Below, piece after piece: positions 5,604-5,708 of a stretch of 16,681 nucleotides of DNA. Under the pieces are notes generated by a model that saw only the letters and a program-made list of their open reading frames with translations, made no database searches and was not told where the DNA came from. How positions within the stretch are numbered: position 1 is the first letter of the stretch; each line of letters starts with the position of its first letter. The DNA comes from a virus (taxonomy: Duplodnaviria > Heunggongvirae > Uroviricota > Caudoviricetes), in IMG/VR virus record IMGVR_UViG_2541047909_000002; one strand, 5' to 3'. The position numbers were made by a program, and so were the translations under genes.

Positions 5604-5632
5604 TTGCATTTTTCAAAAAATATGGATAAAAT
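5604..5632 (+). promoter_or_regulatory. Candidate late promoter (PR'-like): TTGCAT-N17-TAAAAT
   Basis: Near-consensus sigma-70 hexamers with 17-nt spacing, 32 nt downstream of the quuQ stop, in the position of a lambdoid late promoter and Q-utilisation site. Confidence 0.5.
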
Positions 5633-5677
5633 TTTTTCAACGATGGGCTTTGTATACCCGACGTTAAGAAAAAGTAG

Positions 5678-5708
5678 AAAACCCGCTGATGAGCGGGTTT
5701 TGTGCTTT
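5678..5708. terminator. Rho-independent terminator (tR'-like), probably bidirectional
   Basis: Hairpin ACCCGCT-GATG-AGCGGGT with U-rich flanks on both strands, about 45 nt downstream of the candidate late promoter and downstream of convergent cspF. Confidence 0.55.

Follow-up and report, generated by a model that had tools for sequence, protein, structure and literature searches.

The window analyzed here, a stretch of 16,681 nucleotides, corresponds to the Qin cryptic prophage of E. coli K-12; positions 5400-6000 are 100% identical to MG1655 and are found in 2305 of 5426 complete E. coli genomes (~43%). Window position x was measured to correspond to position 1648061 - x of NC_000913.3, on the minus strand. 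To map transcription start sites (TSSs) published on NC_000913.2, this relation was combined with a presumed offset of +1976 to NC_000913.3, which is based on gene coordinates of the older version and is supported by the fact that the TSSs of Qin and DLP12 both land 7 nt after a -10 hexamer.

RefSeq annotates an intact quuQ gene and, downstream of it, no feature in 5573-5849; within this interval, 32 nt after the end of the quuQ stop codon, begins the -35 hexamer of the element described in this work. The annotated start of essQ (7476) lies 1771 nt beyond the 3' end of the leader RNA at 5705, and between them are ynfS and cspF (minus strand), cspB (plus strand) and ynfU (minus strand). This agrees with the first-pass annotation of this DNA, which had placed the lysis genes about 1.8 kb further on and cspF antisense to any readthrough transcript, an orientation that ynfS shares. 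The gene order essQ-ydfR-rrrQ-rzpQ is common to phages Tritos and PhiR42_1. Rfam matches at the gathering threshold were IS009 at 13142-13340 (plus strand, 221 bits) and the cspA thermoregulator, both over cspB (6346-6738, plus strand, 159 bits) and over cspI (9248-9633, plus strand, 113 bits). The features of the locus, in window positions, are the following:

4820-5572, plus strand: quuQ (ydfT), Q-lambda-family antiterminator of 250 aa, intact (RefSeq annotation)
5604-5609, plus strand: -35 hexamer TTGCAT, in register with TTGACT of lambda pR'; TTGCAT or TTGCAA in relatives
5610-5626, plus strand: 17-nt spacer TTTTCAAAAAATATGGA, candidate Q-binding element, 11/17 identical to the lambda spacer
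5627-5632, plus strand: -10 hexamer TAAAAT, with the TSS 7 nt downstream
5639, plus strand: transcription start site (dRNA-seq of Thomason 2015, NC_000913.2 1640446, minus strand, as listed in Suppl. Data 1 of Sun et al., 2021)
5639-5647, plus strand: pause element AACGAT and discriminator-like GGG, identical to lambda pR' +1 to +9
5639-5665, plus strand: predicted 5' stem-loop of the leader RNA, nt 1-27 (MFE fold; consensus fold of 21 loci)
5639-5705, plus strand: terminated leader RNA of 67 nt, analogous to lambda 6S RNA (from TSS and 3' end)
5652-5656, plus strand: promoter-proximal pause, with RNA 3' ends at 5652, 5655 and 5656 (RNET-seq scores 1875, 5783 and 6881)
5678-5708, plus strand: intrinsic terminator tR', a 10-pair stem (5678-5701) followed by GUGCUUU, with the main 3' end at 5705
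5850-5939, minus strand: ynfS (RefSeq annotation), antisense to any readthrough transcript
5850-6206, minus strand: ynfS and cspF, a variable segment partly or wholly missing in Tritos, E. ruysiae and Escherichia sp. E1V33
5994-6206, minus strand: cspF (RefSeq annotation), antisense to any readthrough transcript
6507-6722, plus strand: cspB (RefSeq annotation), sense to the late transcript
7086-7256, minus strand: ynfU (RefSeq annotation)
7476-9031, plus strand: lysis genes essQ, ydfR, rrrQ and rzpQ (RefSeq annotation), presumed targets of Q-dependent readthrough

A promoter and a hairpin terminator had been proposed immediately downstream of quuQ, and our analysis located all their parts where they had been placed (TTGCAT at 5604-5609, N17, TAAAAT at 5627-5632, terminator hairpin at 5678-5701). 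The description of this promoter as near-consensus holds for the -10 hexamer, which matches TATAAT at 5/6 positions, but not for the -35 hexamer, which is weak (3/6 versus TTGACA). A consensus scan of 4500-8500 found 10 promoter-like sites versus 7.9 +/- 3.5 in shuffles; consensus matching alone is not above chance for the Qin promoter, and the significance of the promoter-terminator pair comes from homology and from experiments rather than from the consensus match. When the lambda pR' 57-mer was compared without gaps to both strands of the whole window, the best match fell at 5604 (35/57 identical, z = 6.1). The two promoters have the same 17-nt spacing, -10 hexamers identical at 5/6 positions and the same 6-nt gap, after which AACGATGGG is identical and in register. 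A search for TTGCAT-N16-18-TAAAAT-N5-8-AACGAT gave a single match in the window, and 200 shuffles gave none. Together with the published TSS at 5639, the hexamers in lambda register identify an active sigma70 promoter directly 3' of the Q gene. In lambda, the Q-binding element (QBE) sits between the -35 and -10 hexamers. The Qin spacer shares 11/17 positions with that of lambda and differs at 6/17, and relatives mostly keep T[C/G]AA...TGG; 5610-5626 may be the site bound by QuuQ.

The RNA ends expected from the sequence were computed as coordinates before they were compared with public datasets. RNET-seq data obtained by sigma70 pull-down from a greAB deletion strain are available from Sun et al. 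(2021), with reads aligned to NC_000913.2. Row 12 of their greAB-deletion table gives a minus-strand pause at 1640429 with a score of 6881, and row 24 one at 1640430 with a score of 5783; these are 17 and 16 nt, respectively, from the nearest TSS at 1640446. The pause at 1640429 (window 5656) is the fourth among the G1d entries in the listed portion of the table, G1d being the class with a downstream -10-like element, and a further pause 13 nt from the TSS (window 5652) is included in the G1p list. The words "prophage" and "lambdoid" do not occur in the main text of that study. The sigma70-dependent pause element of lambda is AACGAT at +1 to +6, with a discriminator-like GGG following at +7 to +9; polymerase pauses at +16/+17 and backtracks to +13. 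The Qin pauses 13, 16 and 17 nt downstream of the TSS match this +13, +16 and +17 pattern, and they lie downstream of a -10-like, sigma-dependent pause element placed at the very start of the transcript. It should be noted that a strict count from 5639 puts the pauses at +14, +17 and +18, one more than in lambda, unless initiation occurs at 5640. Most relatives have U-G at +17/+18 with G at +8, which in our reading would fit the elemental pause sequence.

The terminator hairpin starts 45 nt after the -10 hexamer. The last four pairs of its stem are A-U and use the U-run at 5698-5701, and the DNA after the stem reads GTGCTTT. Term-seq of Adams et al. (2021) includes an 'orphan' 3' end at NC_000913.3 1642356 on the minus strand, which corresponds to window position 5705. 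In supplementary file 1 of that study three entries begin with 16423, and both of the two listed are 1642356, with values of about 55,000 and 104,000. Hairpin, U-run and Term-seq end are those of an intrinsic terminator that ends the transcript when Q is not present. Since the TSS lies at 5639 and the 3' end at 5705, the RNA is 67 nt long; a terminated RNA of ~60-70 nt from 5639-5705 had been predicted from the sequence, and both of its ends are found in the K-12 data. A second plus-strand Term-seq 3' end appears once in the same file at window position 5873 (NC_000913.3 1642188, minus strand). It lies 168 nt past tR', after an inverted repeat TCTGCT...AGCAGA and antisense to ynfS, which implies either some readthrough of tR' or another start.

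The 67-nt RNA folds at -26.2 kcal/mol (z = -5.6 versus shuffles) into a 5' stem-loop and the terminator hairpin. The 5' stem-loop pairs AACG...CGUU, has an inner G-rich stem and is present in the individual MFE folds of most of 21 homologous loci. RNAalifold on these 21 loci gave no two-sided compensatory changes in the 5' stem-loop, only one-sided ones (G-U to G-C and U-A to U-G), which are consistent with the predicted structure but are not proof of it. RNAalifold missed the terminator because its stems are out of register in the alignment, and each sequence was therefore folded separately. No Rfam family was found at the gathering threshold in 5560-5900. In a permissive search of the leader the best scores were 16-18 bits versus thresholds of 37-60, mainly aligned to the terminator hairpin, and a known RNA family was rejected, as these were only generic terminator-like matches (e.g., isrK, 16.6 bits versus a threshold of 50). 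A coding leader was also discarded: the ORF at 5604-5759 begins upstream of the TSS, the ATG at 5642 belongs to AACGATG, and in our reading of the related sequences the frame is not kept, with a stop after 2 codons in lambda and after 11 in SKA5 and a run through the terminator in Qin. A preprint on Pas sRNAs places PasD near PF03589 Q genes and describes K-12 as having no Pas genes.

QuuQ matches Pfam family PF03589 (E = 4e-54), which corresponds to Q-lambda in the classification of Yin et al., where PF06530 corresponds to Q21 and PF06323 to Q82. The Pfam search of QuuQ gave no match to PF06530 or PF06323, and its one further match was a DnaJ-type zinc motif. The similarity to lambda Q (PDB 7UBM; E = 4.6e-36) is full-length, covering residues 1-120 and 160-250, and a gene of the Q-lambda antiterminator family is thus located directly upstream of the promoter. 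QuuQ is 100% identical to the Q protein of PhiR42_1 and 94% identical to those of SfV, mEp460 and SKA5. Relative to the lambda protein, residues ~113-155 of QuuQ (window 5156-5284) form an insert of ~43 aa, which its relatives have as well. The insert contains two extra CxxC motifs, is the source of the DnaJ-type CxxCxGxG match and is located in the zinc-ribbon arm. In lambda Q this arm contacts the QBE and sigma region 4 (Yin et al.), so the details of recognition may differ between QuuQ and lambda Q. A literature search on QuuQ found no experiment on the protein itself. A QuuQ with 99% identity to that of E. coli is also encoded on a 22.9-kb contig assigned to a Veillonella parvula MAG; this contig most likely represents mis-binned Escherichia prophage DNA.

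The element is carried by 35 phage records, 15 of which are Stx2c-converting, with good alignments in Tritos, HannyBb, SfV, Ayreon, mEp460, a Stx2c phage, Lys8385Vzw, 720R4, SKA5, 118970_sal3 and F1055. When one genome per species was scanned, further loci with 40-93% identical Q proteins were found in Escherichia, Mangrovibacter, Kosakonia, Phytobacter, Atlantibacter, Scandinavium, Buttiauxella, Entomohabitans and E. albertii. The architecture is kept in 21 loci with Q 40-100% identical, including Escherichia, Salmonella and Shigella phages; SfV, mEp460 and Stx1/Stx2c-converting phages are among them. In these loci the -35 hexamer, N17, the -10 hexamer, N6, AACGAT or AATGAT, GGGC and, after it, the conserved positions +10 to +27 are in register; these leader positions show stronger conservation than the candidate Q-binding spacer. 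All 21 have a hairpin, variable in sequence, and then a U-tract at the same place, and the end of the U-tract is 54-71 nt from the start. In SfV and Ayreon the terminator is annotated and is followed by holin and lysin genes; late, lysis or stx genes follow the cassette in other phages, and in Lys8385Vzw about 440 nt separate the terminator from the start of stxA and stxB.

Several arrangements of the cassette were seen among these relatives. HannyBb (559-1446 and 2948-5233) has two tandem late-promoter cassettes: its own Q with a divergent promoter, pause element and terminator, and, ~1.5 kb downstream, a 98.5% copy of window 5515-7800 that includes a remnant of the Q 3' end, a Qin-type cassette, cspF, cspB and the holin gene. 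The genes for tRNA-Met and tRNA-Arg follow the terminator in a subfamily with Q 40% identical and in a Stx2c phage, an arrangement known from Stx phages. The tRNAs begin about 35 nt past the terminator in two loci (L029, 3967-4220; L030, 3950-4026) and ~1.6-2.2 kb downstream in two others (L031, 5496-5657; L006, 5896-6128).

The cold-shock genes that separate the Qin terminator from the lysis genes had been regarded as an inserted pair. This view could not be sustained as far as K-12 is concerned, as PhiR42_1, a complete 48.7-kb phage record, carries an identical 1903-bp interval between the Q stop and the holin start, with ynfS, cspF, cspB and ynfU included. The cold-shock genes therefore belong to the late leader of this phage lineage and are not an accident of K-12. 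Only the cspF-ynfS piece varies among relatives: phage Tritos and E. ruysiae lack positions 5746-6003, and Escherichia sp. E1V33 lacks 5717-6268, with tR' bordering directly on the region upstream of cspB. About 113 nt beyond the cspB stop, at 6835-6837, are very strong plus-strand Term-seq 3' ends with no obvious hairpin (NC_000913.3 1641224 and 1641226, minus strand). There is a hairpin at 7004-7023, and a 3' end of the ynfU strand maps to the same place (NC_000913.3 1641060, plus strand). Upstream of essQ, the sequence TTTATA-N16-AATAAT (7323-7350, plus strand) matches the 'constitutive' RpoD holoenzyme site reported for essQ-rrrQ-ydfP and flagged as H-NS-associated (Shimada et al., 2014). 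This site might provide Q-independent transcription of the lysis genes.

Taken together, these data identify the element as the late-gene regulatory cassette of Qin, homologous to lambda pR'-qut-tR', a reading to which we assign a probability of roughly 90%. A pR'/qut/tR' unit is what the first-pass annotation had proposed, and the TSS at 5639, the sigma70 pauses 16-17 nt downstream and the 3' end at 5705 bear this out. Lambda and Qin share the Q family PF03589, the register of -35, N17, -10, N6, AACGAT and GGG, a sigma70-dependent pause at ~16-17 nt and an intrinsic terminator ahead of same-strand lysis genes. They differ in the length of the leader (about 193 nt in lambda versus 67 nt in Qin), in 6 of the 17 spacer (QBE) positions, in the 43-aa insert of QuuQ with its two extra CxxC motifs, and in the ~1.8 kb with cold-shock genes, two of the genes antisense, that precede the Qin holin gene. 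Closer relatives are SfV, mEp460, Ayreon, PhiR42_1 and Stx1/Stx2c phages (Lys8385Vzw and the Stx2c_* series), in which Q is 94-100% identical and the promoter, pause element and terminator DNA are 80-100% identical to Qin. Between tR' and the lysis genes these relatives carry a DNA methylase, stx genes, tRNAs or nothing, whereas Qin carries cspF and cspB, and Qin in K-12 is a defective prophage, unlike its phage relatives. The cassette is unannotated and is otherwise an ordinary, textbook lambdoid late-gene switch.

Public K-12 data, together with the sequence, show how the cassette works up to tR'. Sigma70 RNA polymerase initiates at 5639, and sigma70, which remains bound, re-recognizes the -10-like AACGAT at +1 to +6; the polymerase pauses 16-17 nt further on. 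Without Q, transcription terminates at the hairpin, with the 67-nt RNA ending at 5705 being released. By analogy with lambda, QuuQ, once made, would bind the spacer between the -35 and -10 hexamers and engage the paused complex, probably together with NusA, converting it to a terminator-resistant form. The resistant polymerase would then read through tR' and later hairpins, such as that at 7004-7023, and on its way to essQ-ydfR-rrrQ-rzpQ would transcribe cspB in the sense direction and ynfS, cspF and ynfU in the antisense direction; we infer on this basis that readthrough to the lysis genes at 7476 depends on QuuQ. Since the K-12 prophage is defective, the cassette idles most of the time and makes the short RNA.

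Other readings of the same element were weighed against this one. The hairpin might mainly serve as the terminator of the convergent minus-strand cspF-ynfS unit, or work in both directions, with the promoter-like sequence being incidental. Our terminator scan indeed called the terminator on the minus strand only (stem 5701-5678, tail CTACTTTTTC), an A-run before and a U-run after the hairpin could let it work both ways, and ynfS encodes a detected small protein whose minus-strand transcript runs toward the hairpin. However, the hairpin keeps its position in SfV, Ayreon, mEp460, SKA5 and E1V33, all of which lack both cspF and ynfS; the strong Term-seq 3' end is on the pR' strand, and none is listed on the cspF strand in 1641800-1642499; and, given the TSS and the sigma70 pause, the promoter upstream of the hairpin is real. 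We consider this reading very unlikely. A hairpin acting as the cspF terminator only is ruled out by the cspF-less loci and by the absence of a listed minus-strand 3' end, whereas a secondary bidirectional role is possible. Assignment to the phage 21 or 82 type of qut site, the phages that had been suggested as comparators, has next to nothing to recommend it in terms of probability. A Q gene, a promoter, an early pause and a nearby terminator are common to all three Q families, and a leader of ~67 nt differs from the 193-nt leader of lambda. Phages 82 and 21 follow the same logic as Qin (QBE, sigma-dependent pause, nearby terminator), with Q proteins that are unrelated. What decides the matter is that QuuQ is a member of neither the Q21 nor the Q82 protein family, as established by Pfam and by PDB homology, and that Qin has the pause element of lambda, at the same +1 to +6 position, and the lambda pause at 16-17 nt, in contrast to phage 82, which pauses at +25, a position with no counterpart in the Qin pauses. 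Lambda itself is therefore the fitting comparator.

It is also conceivable, though quite unlikely in our judgment, that the element is above all an sRNA gene whose 67-nt product acts in trans or antisense like StxS, with antitermination being secondary or lost in K-12. StxS is a product of pR'-tR' in Stx phages and was proposed by its authors to represent a wider class of such RNAs; like the Qin leader, whose ends at 5639 and 5705 make it the terminated leader of an antiterminated late promoter, StxS is a short constitutive RNA made from such a promoter during lysogeny (Stx1/Stx2a phages). The abundance of the 3' end in the two listed Term-seq entries, the stable fold with a stem-loop from nucleotide 1 and the A-rich linker AAGAAAAAGUAGAAAA point in the same direction, and the longer species ending at 5873 would be antisense to ynfS. 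On the other hand, the single-stranded linker, which would be the seed, is the least conserved part of the RNA among relatives, the U-tail of the leader is short (UUUUGUGC), and the leader has no Rfam match and was not found in the literature search. StxS is unrelated to the Qin leader in sequence, and Hfq binding, RNase E processing and targets have been shown for StxS. A less exclusive version of this idea is unlikely but deserves mention: the 67-nt leader and the longer form to 5873, whose production in K-12 and in ~43% of complete E. coli genomes is constitutive and abundant, might have been co-opted as a regulatory RNA that works in trans in the manner of StxS, or that controls the convergent ynfS-cspF unit by an antisense or collision mechanism, with the conserved 5' stem-loop as a stabilizing element.

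The reading as a lambda-type late-gene cassette explains two K-12 signals, namely the 'orphan' Term-seq 3' end and one of the strongest sigma70-dependent promoter-proximal pauses of the genome. It also makes K-12 a native test bed, in which sigma-dependent pausing and Q loading can be studied in vivo on a single-copy chromosomal lambda-type Q cassette, with a Q variant that has an enlarged zinc-ribbon arm. As the same cassette, with Q 94% identical, lies upstream of stx1 and stx2c in converting phages, its properties are expected to affect toxin expression.

Finally, what looks like an analogous cassette is located in prophage DLP12 (NC_000913.3 577217-577276; 2918-2977 of our locus L033). It has a TATGCT -10 hexamer, a TSS at about 577229 and, 12-15 nt downstream, the top-ranked sigma70 pauses of Sun et al. 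(2021). Its terminator, AAACCCGCCGTCGAGCGGGTTTTT, lies about 170 nt upstream of essD. The DLP12 cassette is 2.9 kb from quuD, and the interval holds nmpC and IS5.
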